Source of the DNA: Candidatus Poribacteria bacterium
Lineage (GTDB): Bacteria > Poribacteria > WGA-4E > PCPOR2b
Assembly: GCA_965218095.1 (NCBI GenBank)
Contig: OZ244587.1
Coordinates: 6,272,001 to 6,336,000 of the forward strand
DNA: 64,000 bases
Reading direction: 5' to 3'
Program-made: the position numbers and the translations under genes
Shown here: positions 2,637 through 61,959 of the stretch, one piece after another
Layout of the letters: every line of letters begins with the position of its first letter
How positions within the stretch are numbered: position 1 is the stretch's first letter
The notes under the pieces: generated by a model
What the model was told of the DNA's origin: nothing
Seen by the model: the letters and a program-made list of their open reading frames with translations, nothing else
Databases searched by the model: none

Positions 2637-4241
2637 ATGAATACATCCCCGACCCAAACAAGCCGTAACTTTGACGCTTGGCAGAAGCCTCTATTGCGTT
2701 ATCTGCTCCAAGAGACGAATACCTTCGTCACTTGTGTGGAATTGGTGACCTCGCGCGGCATTATCACTGAGCGCAATGGGCGACGGGTACTGGAACTCGC
2801 ACGCAAACTGACCGAACACCCGCATATCCACGCCTTGAGCATCACCGACAATCCGGGTGGAAATGCGATGCTGAGTCCGGATATCCTGGGGACAGATCTC
2901 ATCTCCCGTGGGCAGGAGGTCATCATCCACCTCTCCTGCAAAGACTGGAACCGCAACGCCCTTCAGAGTCGTGGATGGCAGCTTGCCAGCGAAGGATTCA
3001 ACAACGTGCTGGCGTTGTCGGGCGACTACCCCGTCAGCGGTTACGAAGGACAGGCGGGCGCGGTATTTGACATTGACTCGGTTGGGCTTCTGAAGATGTT
3101 CTCCGACATGAACGCCGGTATGCAGGTTGAGGTCGGGAAGAAAGCGGAGACTTTGAAGTCCACCCGTTTCTTTCTGGGCGCGGTGGTCAACAACCACAAA
3201 CGCTATGAACGCGAGGTGATGCCGCAGTATTTCAAGTTGGCGAAAAAGATCGAGAATGGCGCGGCGTTTATCATCAACCAGATCGGCTACGATTCGCGCA
3301 AGCAGGACGAGTTGGTCAAGTATATGGCGATGCACAATCTAAACGTACCGGTGCTTGGCAACGTCTATGTCCTGAGCCGGACTGCAGCGCGTTATTTTAA
3401 CAGGGGGAATATCCCCGGCGTCACTGTGACCGACGAGTTGCTCGATCTGGTTGAGAAACAGGCGCGGTCGAAAGACAAGGGCAAAGTGTTCTTCCTGGAG
3501 TTTGCCGCCAAGCAGTGCGCAATAGCGAAGGGGCTAGGCTATCGCGGCGTCTACTTGGGCGGACATCTGAGATACCGTGACTACGAGAAAATCCTGAAGC
3601 TGACGGAACGTTTTGGCGAGGATGACTGGAAAGACTTCGCGGCGGAGATCTGCTTCTGCTACCCCGACGAATTTTTCTTCTTTGAACCGGAGGCGGAGAC
3701 GAGGCTCAGTTCAACGCAGATTAATCGAGATTATCTTTTTTCAAAACGCCCACAAGCCTTGAAGGCAGCCAGGCAGGAAATCCCCTTGAGCTATAAAATT
3801 AACCGTGTCGTCCACGATAAGTTCTTTGAAGCGGGGGGCCTGGGGTTCAAAATTGGAGAGCGATTCTCTCAGACGGTCGAAGACGCTGGCGAAGGCGTCC
3901 AGAAAGCCGCTCACGGTTTGGAGCAGGCGGTTAAAATTGCGACATTCGATTGTCAGGACTGCGGCGACTGCTCGTTGCCGGATATCGCGTTTCTCTGTCC
4001 TGAGTCTCAGTGTGTGAAGAACCAGCGCAACGGTCCCTGCGGCGGCACCCGTCAGGGAAAGTGCGAGGTGGGGGAGAAGGACTGCATCTGGGCGCGGGCT
4101 TATGACCGCCTCAAAGCCTACGGCGAAGAGGAGAAGATGCTGGAAGGCCCAGTCATCTTCAAGAATGGCGCGTTGAAAGGCACCAGCGCCTGGGCAAATA
4201 CTTTTCTGAAGCGAGACCATCATGCTCAGAAAAAATCGTAA
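2637..4241 (+). CDS. metF: Methylenetetrahydrofolate reductase with fused C-terminal Cys-rich MetV (MTHFR_C) domain
   Basis: MTHFR motifs ITDNPGG, IHLSCKDWN, LALSGDYP, KKIENGAAFIINQ; C-terminal CQDCGDC..CPESQCVKNQRNGPCGG..CEV..CIW. Confidence 0.88.
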   Translation: MNTSPTQTSRNFDAWQKPLLRYLLQETNTFVTCVELVTSRGIITERNGRRVLELARKLTEHPHIHALSITDNPGGNAMLSPDILGTDLISRGQEVIIHLSCKDWNRNALQSRGWQLASEGFNNVLALSGDYPVSGYEGQAGAVFDIDSVGLLKMFSDMNAGMQVEVGKKAETLKSTRFFLGAVVNNHKRYEREVMPQYFKLAKKIENGAAFIINQIGYDSRKQDELVKYMAMHNLNVPVLGNVYVLSRTAARYFNRGNIPGVTVTDELLDLVEKQARSKDKGKVFFLEFAAKQCAIAKGLGYRGVYLGGHLRYRDYEKILKLTERFGEDDWKDFAAEICFCYPDEFFFFEPEAETRLSSTQINRDYLFSKRPQALKAARQEIPLSYKINRVVHDKFFEAGGLGFKIGERFSQTVEDAGEGVQKAAHGLEQAVKIATFDCQDCGDCSLPDIAFLCPESQCVKNQRNGPCGGTRQGKCEVGEKDCIWARAYDRLKAYGEEEKMLEGPVIFKNGALKGTSAWANTFLKRDHHAQKKS

Positions 4242-4319
4242 CGTAAAGCGTAAAAGGAGATTCGGTCTCTTTTCTTCTTATACCGTTTCTGAATAATTTG
4301 CCGCACGATTCGGACAGAA

Positions 4320-4460
4320 AGCGCAGAGACAATGAGAAAGTGAGAGGGGGAGAAAGTGAGGGAAGAAGAGACAATAGGAAAGTGAGAAAAGACAAAGACA
4401 GGGAGTTGCTTCTTCTGCTTTTGCTCACTTTCATACCTGCTCACTCGTTCCCTCGTTTCA
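4320..4460. repeat. Degenerate short tandem purine-rich repeats (GAGAAAGT-like) followed by complementary pyrimidine-rich repeats
   Basis: gagaaagt gagagggg gagaaagt gagggaag ... then ctcactttc/ctcactcg; imperfect fold-back in the metF intergenic region. Confidence 0.5.
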
Positions 4461-4517
4461 ACAACGCGTTACTCTTTATCAAAATTGGTATTACGTTTTA
4501 CGCATGAGGAGTTGAAG

Positions 4518-5555
4518 ATGAAACTAAACGGTCGAGATTTTATCATTATTGGCGAGAATGTCCATACGACTCGCGTGGTACGTCGAAAAGGAAAACTGGT
4601 TACGAACAACCCTGAAGGGGTTGAATCTGTCCGCTACTTGGACACAAACAAAAAACGTTGCTATCTTGTCATCCCCGAATCTATCAAAAAATCCCAGGAG
4701 TATGAGGAGGGGCGCGTCAAACACGTCATCATCGCTGTTCAGGGGGCGATGTCGGGTGAAGAACCCCACGCCAGCGAAGGTCTGGAATACATACGCAAAA
4801 TCGTCCAACGGCAGGTTGATGCCAACACTGATTTTCTTGATGTGAACGTGGATGAAATTTCGTGGCGCCTTGCGGAGCAGAAGGAAGCGATGCACTGGCT
4901 AGTACAAACTGTCCAGCAGATGACCGATACGCCTTTGTCGGTCGATTCATCCAACACAGAGATTATCGCGGCGGGGCTTGAAGTGTATGATAATCGCGTC
5001 GGGCGGGCGTTGCTGAACTCCGCCTCGCTGGAGCGTCTGGAGGCACTGGATTTGGCCAAACAGTACGATACCAAGGTTATGGTGACAGCAGCCAGCGAAT
5101 CCGGCATGCCACAGACTCCTGAAGAACGAGTCGACAACGCCTCACGCATCATCAATGCTGCTCAGGACAAGGGGATTGCGATTGAAGATATCTTTGTTGA
5201 CCCCCTGTTCTTCCCGATTGGTGTGGATACGGAGAATGGCAACCACGCCTTTGAGGCCATCCGGCGGCTTCGTGATAAGTATGGTCCCAACATCCATATC
5301 AGCGGTGGATTCAGCAATGTCTCCTTCCAGATGCCATGCCGCCGTCTGATTAACGATGTGTTTATGCTTTTGGCGATTGAAGCCGGCACGGATAGCGGAA
5401 TTATCGACCCGGTGACCAGCAATCCGCAAAAGGTCTTCGCTATCGATCGAGATTCCAGATCCTATCGGCTAACTGAGGACGTGTTGCTAGGTAAAGATCG
5501 TTTTTGCCGGAAGTTTCTGCGTGCCTACCGCAAGGGGGAATTGGAGGTTAGCTGA
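4518..5555 (+). CDS. Pterin-binding methyltransferase (methyl-THF:corrinoid methyltransferase; AcsE / MetH folate-domain-like)
   Basis: IIIGEN, FLDVNV, PLSVDSSN, LLNSAS, IFVDPL, GFSNVSF motifs; RBS GAGGAG before ATG 4518. Confidence 0.85.
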   Translation: MKLNGRDFIIIGENVHTTRVVRRKGKLVTNNPEGVESVRYLDTNKKRCYLVIPESIKKSQEYEEGRVKHVIIAVQGAMSGEEPHASEGLEYIRKIVQRQVDANTDFLDVNVDEISWRLAEQKEAMHWLVQTVQQMTDTPLSVDSSNTEIIAAGLEVYDNRVGRALLNSASLERLEALDLAKQYDTKVMVTAASESGMPQTPEERVDNASRIINAAQDKGIAIEDIFVDPLFFPIGVDTENGNHAFEAIRRLRDKYGPNIHISGGFSNVSFQMPCRRLINDVFMLLAIEAGTDSGIIDPVTSNPQKVFAIDRDSRSYRLTEDVLLGKDRFCRKFLRAYRKGELEVS

Positions 5556-5557
5556 CA

Positions 5558-5836
5558 ATGGCAATCTATCAAATCCTGTACTGGAAAGATATTCCCGCTC
5601 AGATCAGAGTCTTTGAAGGCAGAAAGCCAATCTCGCGACAAATGCCCGACCGTTTTCAGGTCGCCATCGATCGCATGGCGATGGAAGAGGGTTTAGCCGG
5701 AAGCGACGATTATCTGGATGAATGGCAATGGACCAAAAAAATGGAACGCCCCGGCGATCCGGAGGAAGTTCTGAGCGCACTCTTACAGGAGCTTGAGACG
5801 GAATACGATGATAAGGTACGAAAACGAAAGGGATAA
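5558..5836 (+). CDS. Virulence-factor (CvfA-like) domain small protein, typical of MTHFR/methyltransferase clusters
   Basis: ILYWKDIPAQ...RFQVAIDRMAM..G..GSDDYLDEW signature. Confidence 0.75.
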   Translation: MAIYQILYWKDIPAQIRVFEGRKPISRQMPDRFQVAIDRMAMEEGLAGSDDYLDEWQWTKKMERPGDPEEVLSALLQELETEYDDKVRKRKG

Positions 5837-58066: not shown

Positions 58067-58886
58067 GGTTCTGTTGACATTTGAGTATAAGGTTGTGGCA
58101 TAATAGAAGAATGACGCCAATAACCTTACCTGATGAACAATGGAATAAGATATACCGGTTTCTTCTTAGCTGTCTCACCATCTATGTTGGCAACGAAGCT
58201 GCTACACGCTGCTTCGTCGAAGCCGTCCTGTGGGTGACTCGTAGCGGCGCTCAATGGAGACTTCTACCAGACACCTATGGCAAATGGAACACCCGCTACA
58301 AGCGGTTTGCTCGATGGTGCGACAAAGGTATCTTCACACAGATGCACCACCACTTCGCCTCTGACCCCGATATCGAGTCGCTTATTGTGGACAGTACCAT
58401 CTGCCGCGCTCACCCGTCTGCGGCGGGCGCCTTAAAAAAAACGGTGGCACTGAAAACCAAGCATTAGGTCGCTCTCGGGGCGGTTTCAGCACAAAAATTC
58501 ACATCACAGTTGACGGACTAGGCAATCCCCTAAGAATTCATCTGACACCCGGTCAGAGACATGACATAACTGAGGCGGAAGGGTTGATAATCGGATATAA
58601 CAGTGAATATGTGATTGGAGACAAGGGGTACGATTCGGACGCTTTTATCGCGGTTATTGAGGCGAATGGAGCGATTGCAGTGATACCGCCAAAAAGTCAT
58701 CGTGTTGACCAAAGAACGTATGACAAACACTTATACAAAGAGAGACATCGGGTTGAATGTTTCATCAACAAGATAAAATGGTATCGTCGTATCTTCTCTC
58801 GGTTTGAGAAGCTAGCTGTCCGTTATTTTGGATTTCTCAGCTTTGTCTCCACTCTTATATGGCTCCCTTGAAATGTCAACAGAACC
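58067..58886 (+). mobile_element. IS5-family element copy C (820 bp; two ORFs with A-tract frameshift)
   Basis: Same TIRs and CTAG target; orfA 58081..58467, slippery TTAAAAAAAAC near 58432, orfB ends 58871. Confidence 0.94.
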
Positions 58887-59409
58887 TAGCACAAGTCGTT
58901 AATTATTAAAAAGTAATGACTGTAGAGATTAGGTTCTGTTGACATTTCATCGTAACCAGATAATCACAGCAACGAAACTCAGAAACCCCAAATAGCGACC
59001 CGCCAACTTATCAAAACAACTGAAGATACGCCTATAGTGCTTGATTTTGTTGATGAAGCATTCCACCCGATGTCTCTCTCGGTACAGATGCGTATCATAG
59101 TCTCGTGACTCACGGCGGTTGATACGGGGACGAATCACTGGCTCTGCACCCATACGGGTTATCAACTGCACCAATGAATCCGCGTCATACGCTGAGTCGG
59201 CTATCACATACTCACTGCTATACCCTTCTGCACAAGTCATGGCGTGGCGTTGTCTAGCCGTCAGCGCAAAACGTAACGCATTTATAAATAATTGGCTTGC
59301 AGATTCTTTGAATATGTGATATTATTGGGGTGTTACAAGCCTGTGATTCTGAAGTTTATTAAATCGTTGGCTTGTTTTACCTTTCCTCGCCAAAGTAAAG
59401 GACACCCCA

Positions 59410-59850
59410 ATGAGTGATTTTCTTAGTGTAGTAGCGGATATACTCATTATCATTGCTGCTGGAAAGTTCATTTGGAAACACATTCCCAGTAGTGACGATT
59501 TGTATAGTATCAGAAAGTCCTTCATAGACTTCAGAGATGAAGCAAAACAACTGAAAGAAGAAGTCGTCAATTTAAGAAGGGTAGAGCTTACCAACATCGC
59601 AGAGAATCTGAAAACTAGAGATGCAACTGCGAAGAAAACCGTACCTGTTGAAGATATTGACAAGAAACTTGATTCTTTTCAACAGTCAGTAACGAGAATG
59701 GACAGGTACATGACAACTACCCTTGCAACTCATGTAGCAGTCATCAAGTCAATAGATAGTATAGAGGGGCGTTATGCCCAAATGGAGGAACGATTTGGGC
59801 AAACCGAAACAACCCTCCGAAATGTTGCTAGAAGATTGCACATGAGATAG
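59410..59850 (+). CDS. IS1595 passenger: N-terminal TM plus coiled-coil hypothetical protein
   Basis: AAAGGA RBS; hydrophobic N-terminus, heptad-rich remainder. Confidence 0.7.
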   Translation: MSDFLSVVADILIIIAAGKFIWKHIPSSDDLYSIRKSFIDFRDEAKQLKEEVVNLRRVELTNIAENLKTRDATAKKTVPVEDIDKKLDSFQQSVTRMDRYMTTTLATHVAVIKSIDSIEGRYAQMEERFGQTETTLRNVARRLHMR

Positions 59851-59915
59851 ACATAAAACAGGCGAGGGGGTGTTATAGCACCCCCACCGCCACAACATGG
59901 CAAAGGAGACCCCCC

Positions 59916-60095
59916 ATGCCACGCATCAAATACATCAAGTCTTACAGGCGTAAAGACGGCACGCTTGTAAGTCCACATATACGGACAACTGCTGATAACA
60001 CCCTCTGCATCACGACTTATTCCAATGAAAGGAGGGATTATCGTGTTTATAAAAATACGCAAAACCTTTACGTTTATCGTACTCAAAATCGCTAA
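59916..60095 (+). CDS. IS1595 passenger: 59-aa basic protein (below ORF-track cutoff)
   Basis: AAGGAG RBS; MPRIKYIKSYRRKDGTLVSPHIRTTADNT..., resembling the YxRKDGTxVxxHxRT basic motif. Confidence 0.65.
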   Translation: MPRIKYIKSYRRKDGTLVSPHIRTTADNTLCITTYSNERRDYRVYKNTQNLYVYRTQNR

Positions 60096-60284
60096 ACGTA
60101 AGGGTAATCAAACGCCGTATAGCAGTCCTTATACGGCTACGCCTAAGCAATAACTCTTAGGCAATATCAGGGGGTGCTACACAAAGCACTCCCTGATATT
60201 TTGTTGCTAGAGTGTCCGGCTCCCACCGGACACTCCCTTATGGGAAAACCTCTGAAAATATGACTCAGAAAGGAGGCAGATGTT

Positions 60285-60479
60285 ATGTCATCACAAAGGA
60301 AGGTGGATATTCAACGTGTTAAAGAACATCTACAAAAACATGCTGATAAAACCCACCGAATTGAAGAGAGGTTATTTACCTCTACTGCAACCGTAGAAGA
60401 TTTAAGAGTTGCAATTCAGTTACTTAAAAATGACTACACACTAATTACAACCATTTTCAAAAGGTTGGAAATAGTGTAA
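60285..60479 (+). CDS. IS1595 passenger: 64-aa helical hypothetical protein
   Basis: AAGGAGG RBS; flanked by 14-bp inverted repeats. Confidence 0.65.
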   Translation: MSSQRKVDIQRVKEHLQKHADKTHRIEERLFTSTATVEDLRVAIQLLKNDYTLITTIFKRLEIV

Positions 60480-60517
60480 TCTAATCCTTCTATGGAGTCT
60501 CCAGAGGTTTTCCCACC

Positions 60518-61399
60518 CTACACAAAGCATTCCCTGATAAACTTCTTGAAGATGTTCCGGTTCTTCCGGTTGTTGTACTTGTAACACGCCTCAGCGATGT
60601 AGAGCGAAACATGCTTGTAGTGGTGATGTGTACCATGAAACGCACGTTTCACCAGCGACCAGAACCCTTCAATCGTGTTTGTGTGGGTATTACCGTCCAC
60701 GTACTGCCAGTTCTTGTGTCTGATGACATGGTGAGGCATGAGCCCATCAACCGCCTCATACGATGAGAACTCATCTGTCATTAGAACTGAATCCTTCGGC
60801 TTCTCAATAACGCCTTTGATGAACCCCAAAACGCCCTTACGACTCAAACTCGTAGCCACACGCGCCACAACATTCCCAGCCCGTTCAACAGCACCGATAA
60901 CGGGCGTTTTCTTCGTGCCTCTACCTCGCTTGCTCGGTGGAGGCAAGTTCCCGTCCTTGTCTTTTCGTCGTCGGGGCTTACCGCCCACGTAGGTTTCATC
61001 GCATTCAATAATTCCTCTCAGTAAAACCTTGCCCTTTCTACCCATCTCAGACCTGATTCGTTTCATCATGAACCAAGCTGAGGGTTGCGTTAAGTCCAAA
61101 TGACGAGCCATTTGACAACTTGATAGGCTTTTCTTCGCATCGTTCATTAACAGGATAGCCATAAACCACTTCTGAAGTGGAATCTGTGTTCCTTGAAATA
61201 TCGTTCCCTGTAACACATTGAAACTTGACTTACAAGTATGGCAATTCCAACGACCAATTATGCTAGCTTCATTCTTCGGTGCAACCTTTTTACTTTCGCA
61301 ATATGGACACTCAGGTTTGCCACCCCAGCGGATAGTTTCTAAGTGTTTAATACAACTCTCTTGGTCAGAAAATCGTTCTACAGCATCAAACAAGTTCAT
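60518..61399 (-). CDS. IS1595-family transposase
   Basis: Zn ribbon CPYCES..WNCHTC, TIFQGT.IPL.KW, ECDETYVGG, TDEFSSY, HTNTIEGFWS..KR. Confidence 0.95.
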   Translation of the reverse strand: MNLFDAVERFSDQESCIKHLETIRWGGKPECPYCESKKVAPKNEASIIGRWNCHTCKSSFNVLQGTIFQGTQIPLQKWFMAILLMNDAKKSLSSCQMARHLDLTQPSAWFMMKRIRSEMGRKGKVLLRGIIECDETYVGGKPRRRKDKDGNLPPPSKRGRGTKKTPVIGAVERAGNVVARVATSLSRKGVLGFIKGVIEKPKDSVLMTDEFSSYEAVDGLMPHHVIRHKNWQYVDGNTHTNTIEGFWSLVKRAFHGTHHHYKHVSLYIAEACYKYNNRKNRNIFKKFIRECFV

Positions 61400-61959
61400 T
61401 CATCTCAACTCCTTTATTCATAAGGGTTTGATGCCTATATTGTATCAAATTTACACAAAACTTGCAAGCCTAAACCTTATAAGCGCGAAACGTAATGGAT
61501 TGCCTAAGCCATCAACCGTGATGTGAATTTTGGTTGAAAATCCACCCACACTACGTCCGAGTGCCTGTGAGGCTTGACCGCCACTTGTTTTCAAACCCCC
61601 TGCAGCACAGGGGTGAGCGCGGCAGATGGTACTGTCACCATATCTAGGTCGTTGACAAAGTGTTGATGCAGCCGTTGGAAGATGCCTTTATCGCACCAGC
61701 AAGCGAATTGTTTATAGACGCTGTTCCAACTGCCGTACTCTTTTGGTAGGAGTCGCCATTGACTACCACTACGAGTTATCCAAAGCACTGCTTGGACAAA
61801 ACGTTTTAAGTTCGCTTGCTGTCCGGTGTAGACATCGGAACAGGTTTGCAGGAATGCTGCTATTTTTGACCATTGATTATCGGATAAGGTAAGTGTTGAC
61901 ATATCGTTATTATGCCATGAATGTCAACACGTCCTAGCTAAATATTTTTCCGCGATGTA

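Follow-up and report, generated by a model that had tools for sequence, protein, structure and literature searches.

The transporter insertion sequence (IS), that is, an IS with passenger genes, is set out as a concept in a passage of PMC3129680 that cites Siguier, Gagnevin and Chandler (2009). In the current study, we analysed such an element in a 64,000-nucleotide stretch of the Candidatus Poribacteria bacterium assembly GCA_965218095.1 (the window; contig OZ244587.1, positions 6,272,001 to 6,336,000), where small open reading frames (ORFs) and a series of hairpins lie beside an IS1595-family transposase gene. The element resembles the IS1595 transporter ISs in the domains of its transposase, in its inverted repeats and 8-bp duplication of AT-rich target, and in having its passengers inside the ends. 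With integrons (IntI, attI and attC), it shares promoterless small ORFs that are parted by imperfect hairpins and lie near a recombination enzyme, an array read from one end, and a content that varies by discrete units. End-skipping ISs of the ISEcp1 type capture adjacent genes, the original inverted repeat staying between transposase and cargo; as there, our passenger DNA lies between the transposase gene and the distal end. Finally, partial IS scars, an IS inside an IS, and outer ends that act as one unit recall nested, tandem and composite ISs that have suffered deletion. Having compared the element with its relatives, we think it probable (roughly 60%) that its array is a mosaic of sibling elements, put together by fusion and recombination, in which a terminator hairpin was retained.

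The assembly consists of a single 6.35-Mb contig, in which the element is present as nine full-length copies at unrelated sites. Comparison of these copies places its boundaries exactly (2211 bp). Seven of the nine are identical, and the other two carry a single C-to-T change at element position 1581 (window 60857). The copies are flanked by AT-rich direct repeats (exact 8-bp repeats in six, 9-bp repeats in two, and a 7/8 match in one), and the left end matches the reverse complement of the right end at 18 of the 25 outermost positions. The features of the copy in the window are as follows.

59269-59276: left copy of the target-site duplication, AAACGTAA
59277-61487: the element
59277-59301, plus strand: left terminal inverted repeat, CGCATTTATAAATAATTGGCTTGCA; the ends are the same in all nine copies
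59277-59409, plus strand: conserved leader; holds the inverted repeat, a further copy of GGCTTG and a structured 5′ part that pairs across the start of orfA
59410-59850, plus strand: orfA146, hydrophobic N terminus followed by coiled-coil-like sequence; no known family
59866-59885, plus strand: ORF1-ORF2 intergenic hairpin, GGGGGTGTTATAGCACCCCC; a spacer and a ribosome site come next
59916-60095, plus strand: orfB59, chimeric small basic ORF; residues 1-27 identical to the protein P0002, remainder different
59997-60165, plus strand: swapped-in module of 169 nt, with a hairpin right-arm remnant (AACACCCTCT), a ribosome site, a 36-aa ORF and a hairpin at 60141-60162
60163-60200, plus strand: relic hairpin, 16-bp stem and 6-nt loop, followed by TTTTGTTG
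60177-60198, plus strand: relic of a transposase 3′ end, 22 nt (stop codon and last six codons)
60199-60517, plus strand: segment X, with a hairpin module that lacks an ORF (60210-60235), a ribosome site and orfC64
60285-60479, plus strand: orfC64, small orphan protein
60518-61399, minus strand: IS1595-family DDE transposase, 293 aa, here without a stop-codon hairpin at the 3′ end of its gene
61439-61467, minus strand: TTGCAA-17-TACAAT, within the right end; resembles a promoter for the transposase (consensus match only)
61463-61487, minus strand: right terminal inverted repeat
61488-61495: right copy of the target-site duplication, AAACGTAA

The transposase matches the profile DDE_Tnp_IS1595 (PF12762, the ISXO2-like catalytic domain) at 1.6e-34 over residues 127-276, with the full profile covered, and its N-terminal part matches Zn_ribbon_IS1595 (PF12760) at 3.6e-8, which passes the curated cut-off. 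Profile searches recognised no other enzyme within the element. The catalytic domain, the zinc ribbon, the terminal inverted repeats with their 8-bp duplication and the mobility of the element as a unit are those of the IS1595 family, and orfA146, orfB59 and orfC64, which occur in all nine copies and nowhere else in the genome, make it a transporter IS. Because nine near-identical copies carry target duplications, with the passenger ORFs inside their ends, we conclude that this is a recently active IS1595-family transporter IS, and so an element of a known kind. The whole 2211-bp unit is moved by its own DDE transposase, with duplication of 8 to 9 bp of AT-rich target. A metagenome scan with the transposase returned 65 loci, the best of them 52% identical and none informative on the clade.

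The three cargo ORFs are co-oriented, convergent on the transposase gene, and each has a visible ribosome site; a fourth small ORF (GTG start, 60043-60153, 36 aa) also has a good one. Between orfB59 and orfC64 lies the 22-nt relic, which forms a direct repeat with the end of the working transposase gene (60518-60539). The two copies are identical at 21 of 22 positions, and the single difference (GAG/GAA) is synonymous. The region around the relic (60135-60240) folds into three hairpins (-56.5 kcal/mol, z -9.6), and the relic hairpin with its trailing TTTTGTTG fits a simple terminator consensus on the cargo strand. The resident transposase end (60480-60560), on the other hand, is unstructured (z +0.6), with no trace of a left arm between orfC64 and the stop codon; that is, the left arm of the stop-codon hairpin here adjoins the internal 22 nt and not the working gene. 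Motifs are shared along the array as well: the cargo part (1241 bp) has three occurrences of GGGTGTTA or its complement and five of GGGGTG/CACCCC, where the genome rate predicts 0.04 and 0.61. The original prediction had read from this one copy a 2.2-kb IS1595 with terminal repeats and an 8-bp duplication, nested in an IS5 element and carrying three small ORFs, related hairpins (at 59327 pairing with 59402, at 59866 and at 60163-60200, all of which fold) and a 21/22 copy of the transposase 3′ end. This anatomy proved correct, its hairpins, recurring motif and 21/22 copy exceed what chance would give, and only the fourth ORF was missing from its list.

Relatives of the element show where a transposase end of this kind belongs. 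The standard layout of the clade is a left end, a structured leader, ORF1 (an exported or membrane protein), a hairpin and ribosome site, ORF2 (a small basic protein) and then a hairpin over the stop codon of the convergent transposase gene. The loop of this last hairpin holds the stop codon, and its right arm is formed by the last codons of the gene. The simple form, without a relic, is seen in L024, a 2227-bp contig of a Poribacteria metagenome-assembled genome (MAG) with a transposase 79% identical to ours, which carries an ORF1 for an exported protein of 125 aa, unrelated to ours, then a hairpin and ribosome site, a basic ORF2 of 41 aa, likewise unrelated, and the stop-codon hairpin. Similarly, in L193 (genome G024), a homolog of orfB stands directly before the same hairpin and transposase end, and again there is no relic. 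When 12 such hairpins are aligned, 87.4% of cells are paired, versus at most 47.4% with the partner slid, and both sides have changed at 9 of 16 pairs; none of 500 shuffles reaches these values. As pairing and compensatory changes both exceed the slid and shuffled controls, covariation argues that the stop-codon hairpin is a selected structure. Presumably, it insulates the convergent cargo and transposase transcription units from each other. Real transposase ends without the hairpin exist too (L213, L214 and L226; it is weak in L225), which makes a donor without it plausible and the bare resident end of our element unremarkable. Modules homologous to that at 59866-59885 were found in rel2, rel3 (two degenerate relatives in the same genome), L024, L191 and L227, and the related hairpins of the array are homologous intergenic modules (hairpin, spacer and ribosome site) that precede each small ORF.

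Relics of a transposase 3′ end, with lengths between 17 and about 54 nt, are retained in at least seven other arrays. These arrays, and a solo relic, are as follows.

rel2 (own genome G000, about 5095600-5098864): 37-nt relic, 1.7 kb of other cargo and a frameshifted transposase gene (78% DNA identity)
rel3 (own genome G000, about 2551366-2553750): 24-nt relic, two leaders and no transposase
L050: relic of about 30 nt
L191: relic of about 34 nt
L190: relic of about 42 to 45 nt
L192: relic of about 51 to 54 nt
L227: 45-nt relic and an intact transposase
L114: solo relic
L038 (Pedosphaera MAG): 17-nt relic plus about 25 nt downstream of the stop codon

Longer 3′ fragments, of 18 to 39 codons, are present in L212, L223, L191 and L190, and more is left in L192. 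A relic scan of 80 public loci gave L050 and L038 as its clear cases, and seven matches of 10 to 12 nt (E 0.009 to 0.043) were treated as noise. A pattern scan of 29 genomes of the family was noisy at two mismatches, the reversed control matching too, and we therefore relied only on sites confirmed by a hairpin or a transposase. The relic lengths form a continuum, as deletion would give, and do not define one site; their lower bound was presumably set by the hairpin arm.

Two of these arrays are particularly telling. Relic and resident end are strongly different in L191, as they are in L192, and each is matched by a complementary left arm of its own; moreover, the L191 relic agrees at every one of its first 18 nt with the genuine transposase end of the G024 lineage. 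Since relic and resident end differ in lineage and their arms are separately matched, both arrays must, by the letters of these ends, be joins of two formerly separate elements. Four other arrays (our element, rel2, L227 and L050) have a relic nearly identical to the resident end. The differences between the two are synonymous in the one case in our element, at all four nucleotides in L227 and in four of five in rel2, and one of the two in L050 alters a residue (Arg/Lys). Such a synonymous pattern fits two diverged coding genes and, equally, a relic held fixed as a hairpin arm while the coding copy next to it drifts.

Some of the relic-bearing loci have features of interest in themselves. A direct repeat of about 45 nt over the transposase stop codon (L038 positions 5891 and 8812) brackets 2.9 kb of cargo in the Pedosphaera MAG. 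Both decaying relatives, rel2 and rel3, encode a repeat protein of 293 aa, whose gene is frameshifted in rel3, together with an 83-aa ORF that is duplicated and a small membrane ORF with an acidic tail; the second leader of rel3 is without an inverted repeat, and the 40 nt before it match the outside flank of rel2. At L237 (G023:C1:1737000-1746000, about 3240-5750), three tandem paralogous lipoprotein genes (227 to 251 aa) each follow an IS1595 transposase-end relic of about 35 nt and each precede a GTTCCGG..CCGGACAC hairpin. WD40-repeat genes flank this array and there is no adjacent transposase, and it seems to be former IS cargo that became fixed in the chromosome and was amplified.

Beyond the relic, segment X begins at 11 nt with a GTGTCCGG..CCGGACAC hairpin module, and a perfect 14-bp inverted repeat (60241-60254 and 60502-60515) surrounds its orfC64. 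Hairpins of this type follow ORF1 in rel2, rel3 and L191. As the opening module of X sits behind an ORF1 elsewhere and has no ORF before it here, X looks like the 3′ half of the cargo of another element, if homology of the module is a guide.

Further evidence of exchange comes from four public runs, which were compared with the element as contigs (contigs drop rare forms). The source-like run X1 has a contig identical to the element over 59277-60841, with no joint inside the cargo. In run X6 (an RNA library), a single 1038-nt contig has 110 different letters between 59996 and 60166, after which it follows the element across the relic, X and the end of the transposase gene (60166-60589) with two differences. 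The X6 differences recur in the DNA run X5 over 59344-59957 and 60166-60587, among whose listed contigs none spans the junction; a further X5 contig has 59990-60119 behind 685 letters foreign to the element. The edges of the variant module lie at the TAACACCC motif on the left and at the foot of the relic hairpin on the right, and its 110 letters fit the intact 61-aa form of orfB seen in P0002. That protein has the RKDGT motif and poly-Arg tail of the orfB family, and homologs of the first 27 to 28 residues of orfB59 are found in genomes G024, G011 and G019. The 169-nt module that stands in this place in our element contains a 36-aa ORF ending PKQ*, and its 3′ part, including the final hairpin, is homologous to rel2 and rel3. 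Because the variant keeps the relic-X junction and differs in 59997-60165, which is rel2/rel3-like here, the element, as read from these modules, draws on three or more siblings, and the relic-X junction predates the module swap. Three other joints (59385 to 60166 in X5, with a side of 29; 59410 to 60525 and 60219 to 60522 in X12, with sides of 22 and 27) have short sides and 85% likeness and are left uninterpreted.

Taken as a mosaic, the array might have arisen in the following way. The leader and orfA, together with the intergenic hairpin, the 5′ half of orfB and the stop-codon hairpin, would derive from a first sibling, whose transposase gene would have been reduced to 22 nt; these 22 nt would have survived because they form the right arm of the terminator-like stem of orfB. 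Everything from the hairpin module through orfC64 and the working transposase to the right end would have come from a second sibling. By the likeliest route, one element would have inserted into the other or next to it, as a nested or tandem pair, after which deletion would have removed the internal ends, the remainder of the first transposase gene and the leader and ORF1 of the second element. In a later step, a 169-nt module from a rel2/rel3-like sibling would have replaced the 3′ half of orfB. The order of these events and the deletion route are what we infer from the present layout, as is the part played by the hairpin as a terminator.

Several observations weigh against such a history. 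No progenitor, in the form of orfC64 by a transposase with its own left end, was found in the 176 genomes of the phylum that were searched. Likewise, a search of L190, L191, L192, L227, rel2 and L050 for an internal left end or leader directly after the relic found none at E 0.01, and the nested-insertion step is conjectural for that reason. The near identity of relic and resident end in four arrays, and the bare resident end here and in rel2, also fit insertion with local duplication, and the synonymous differences between relic and resident ends do not discriminate between the models. The relics, moreover, are all short, for which selection on the hairpin and loss of long direct repeats is a putative cause.

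One alternative is a local tandem duplication of a unit made up of the intergenic hairpin, ribosome site, ORF2 and the 22-nt transposase end, one ORF2 having since diverged or been replaced. Such an event would account for an ORF-less hairpin module within 11 nt of the relic, for the similar unit lengths (spacings of 341 to 369 nt) and for a weak N-terminal match between orfB59 and orfC64 (8/23, E 0.009 for a single comparison), and the lipoprotein paralogs of L237, with their relics, show that units of this sort do duplicate. We nevertheless regard it as unlikely here. The 22 nt are 95% identical, whereas beyond them the units lack significant similarity (global score z 1.2, with 40 of 300 shuffles as high), and the left arm cannot be traced between orfC64 and the transposase stop codon.

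The original prediction had proposed instead that passengers are added sequentially at the transposase stop codon, with duplication of that site, to give an integron-like capture array inside an IS. Part of this stands: the build is modular and stepwise, and its junction is marked by the 22 nt. Addition at the stop codon with site duplication, by contrast, found no support. Dedicated capture of this type would use the stop-codon hairpin as a recombination site for hairpin-plus-ORF cassettes, with duplication of the transposase 3′ end, and there are observations to recommend it: relic-marked junctions recur in at least eight arrays from about eight genomes, the repeat begins at the stop codon in all arrays but L038, the left arm stays with the relic here and in rel2 and leaves the resident end bare, and the breakpoints of the variant module fall at hairpin remnants. 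We find the idea decidedly improbable all the same, given that relic length is not fixed (17 to about 54 nt), that the L191 and L192 relics come from a lineage other than that of the resident end, and that the L038 repeat runs about 25 nt past the stop codon. A boundary at the stop codon is to be expected in any event, since conservation covers the coding sequence but does not extend into the flank. The element contains neither a tyrosine nor a serine recombinase, and within the genome X is confined to the nine copies. Content was expected to vary in discrete units, and it does, in that 59997-60165 is replaced by 110 letters with edges at TAACACCC and at the foot of the relic hairpin; an empty allele, also suggested, did not appear, there being no joint that skips 60199-60517 in the contigs of X1, the one source-like run.

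These findings also set the element apart from integrons. Unlike them, it has no tyrosine recombinase, its hairpins share no recombination core except a G-run, and its junctions are variable-length remnants of a transposase gene and not copies of a fixed site. Free or relocated copies of a cassette were not found, X being seen only inside the nine copies; the runs compared were four, in the form of contigs, from which rare forms drop out. A looser version, in which the stop-codon hairpin acts as a structure-directed recombination hotspot that takes up units of hairpin, ribosome site and small ORF beside the transposase, strikes us as equally doubtful. If it were true, it would mean a recombinase-independent, integron-like platform spreading orphan exported and basic mini-proteins among sponge symbionts. 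As for a chance likeness of the 22 nt to a transposase end, or convergence of two terminator hairpins, it can practically be dismissed: both copies lie in GC-rich stems, with nothing further in its favour, and an identity of 21/22 within 2.2 kb, the occurrence of the same sequence as the true transposase end within the hairpin of simple relatives, and longer relics (37 to 54 nt) that translate as the transposase C terminus all speak against it.

The element differs from the remaining systems as well. In ISEcp1-type capture an end is left inside; here, no internal end was found, and a piece of transposase coding sequence remains. Compared with the usual scars of nested or composite ISs, the product is a compact, highly active single IS, and the scar was kept at hairpin length, apparently as a terminator arm. 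Unlike the described transporter ISs, it has its orphan small ORFs grouped in a mini-operon that converges on the transposase gene and is headed by a conserved, structured leader, and it has a covarying hairpin across the transposase stop codon. Our literature search found no description of this layout or of transposase-end relics. It also returned no paper on IS1595 elements of sponge symbionts, and none that deals with hairpins or with the capture of passengers by ISXO2-type elements.

The cargo proteins are for the most part orphans. Relatives of orfA146 and orfC64 in the databases are few (P0003, 99%; P0004, 67%; and P0006, an orfC64 homolog, 89%), and among the 176 genomes of the phylum both matched in their own genome alone. 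Searches of the cargo ORFs against Pfam, PHROGs and PADLOC gave no family, only sub-threshold matches of coiled-coil type. The ESM Atlas likened orfA146 to small phage proteins (0.90, with recognition under the stated level) and scored P0002 at no more than 0.83, and we take both as weak leads only. Read by eye from the printed sequences, the ORF1 products of the relatives have a hydrophobic, signal-like start and their ORF2 products are small and mostly basic, the 96-aa ORF2 of L227 being the exception. The run variant of orfA has four differences, three of them at third codon positions. In view of this conservation and of differences that fall at third positions, the cargo genes are probably real; any function we might give them would be presumptive. 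Four runs recorded as RNA contain 0.69 to 0.79 of the sampled words, and in X6 the cargo contig has a depth of 41.9 and the transposase contigs 11 to 23; these are assembled contigs, and hence the depths are no proof of transcription.

Presumably, the cargo is read from the leader. This is 89% identical to the leader of L024 over 131 to 133 nt, although the downstream ORFs of the two are unrelated. Within it, 59322-59333 pairs with 59402-59413 in a fold that spans the orfA start codon (-33.3 kcal/mol, z -4.5), and both sides have changed at 6 of 30 pairs among four sequences. The same region (59322-59413) holds a second copy of GGCTTG, the core of the inverted repeat. The structure may serve to control translation of the cargo or to bind transposase. 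No Rfam covariance model matched the leader or the hairpins over its threshold; the only hit, to ftsZ-DE at 20.7 bits (E 0.73), falls short of the gathering score of 72.2.

The copy in the window interrupts an IS4/IS5-type element, of which the DUF4096 part (61591-61902, minus strand; 2.6e-22) and, across from it, the DDE_Tnp_1-type half (58947-59240, minus strand) flank it on either side. A second IS4/IS5-type element (58081-58900; DUF4096 at 7.9e-20, with a DDE part) lies inverted directly beside the interrupted one, and the ends of the two face each other around 58880-58950.

Other members of the transposase clade carry cargo of a different kind. L025, L084 and L086 (Chloroflexota, Alphaproteobacteria and Hyphomicrobiales; 49 to 63% transposase identity) have an N6_N4 DNA methylase of 480 to 550 aa (PF01555, 6e-38 to 1e-44), whose start overlaps the transposase stop codon (ATGA), and L029 and L065 (Nitrosomonadaceae and Caldilineaceae) have methylase cargo judging from N-terminal sequence only. 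One Latescibacterota MAG has sibling IS1595 copies (L039-L049, L064 and L068) with near-identical left ends and transposase 3′ ends. Their DNA differs beyond the stop codon; for those whose right end was located, the cargo measures 822, 1657 and 3412 bp. No transposase-end relics were detected among them. L240 (G027:C5:323871-327860), a sibling of the L227 element, seemingly carries no cargo ORFs; its putative left end and the transposase stop codon lie about 200 nt apart, and the stretch between them contains a long palindrome.

On present evidence, then, the element is not a new recombination system, and what is new is some of its anatomical detail. It shows how a compact IS may gather and reshuffle passengers by ordinary processes, namely insertion of one IS into another, deletion, and recombination at conserved intergenic modules, and a transposase-end relic of hairpin length offers a simple marker of past fusions. 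The element and its relatives define an IS1595 clade of uncultured bacteria, for the most part associated with sponges to judge from the titles of the records and the labels of the runs. Elements of this clade spread small orphan proteins, exported and basic, at high copy number, and relatives of the clade carry a DNA methylase in their place.

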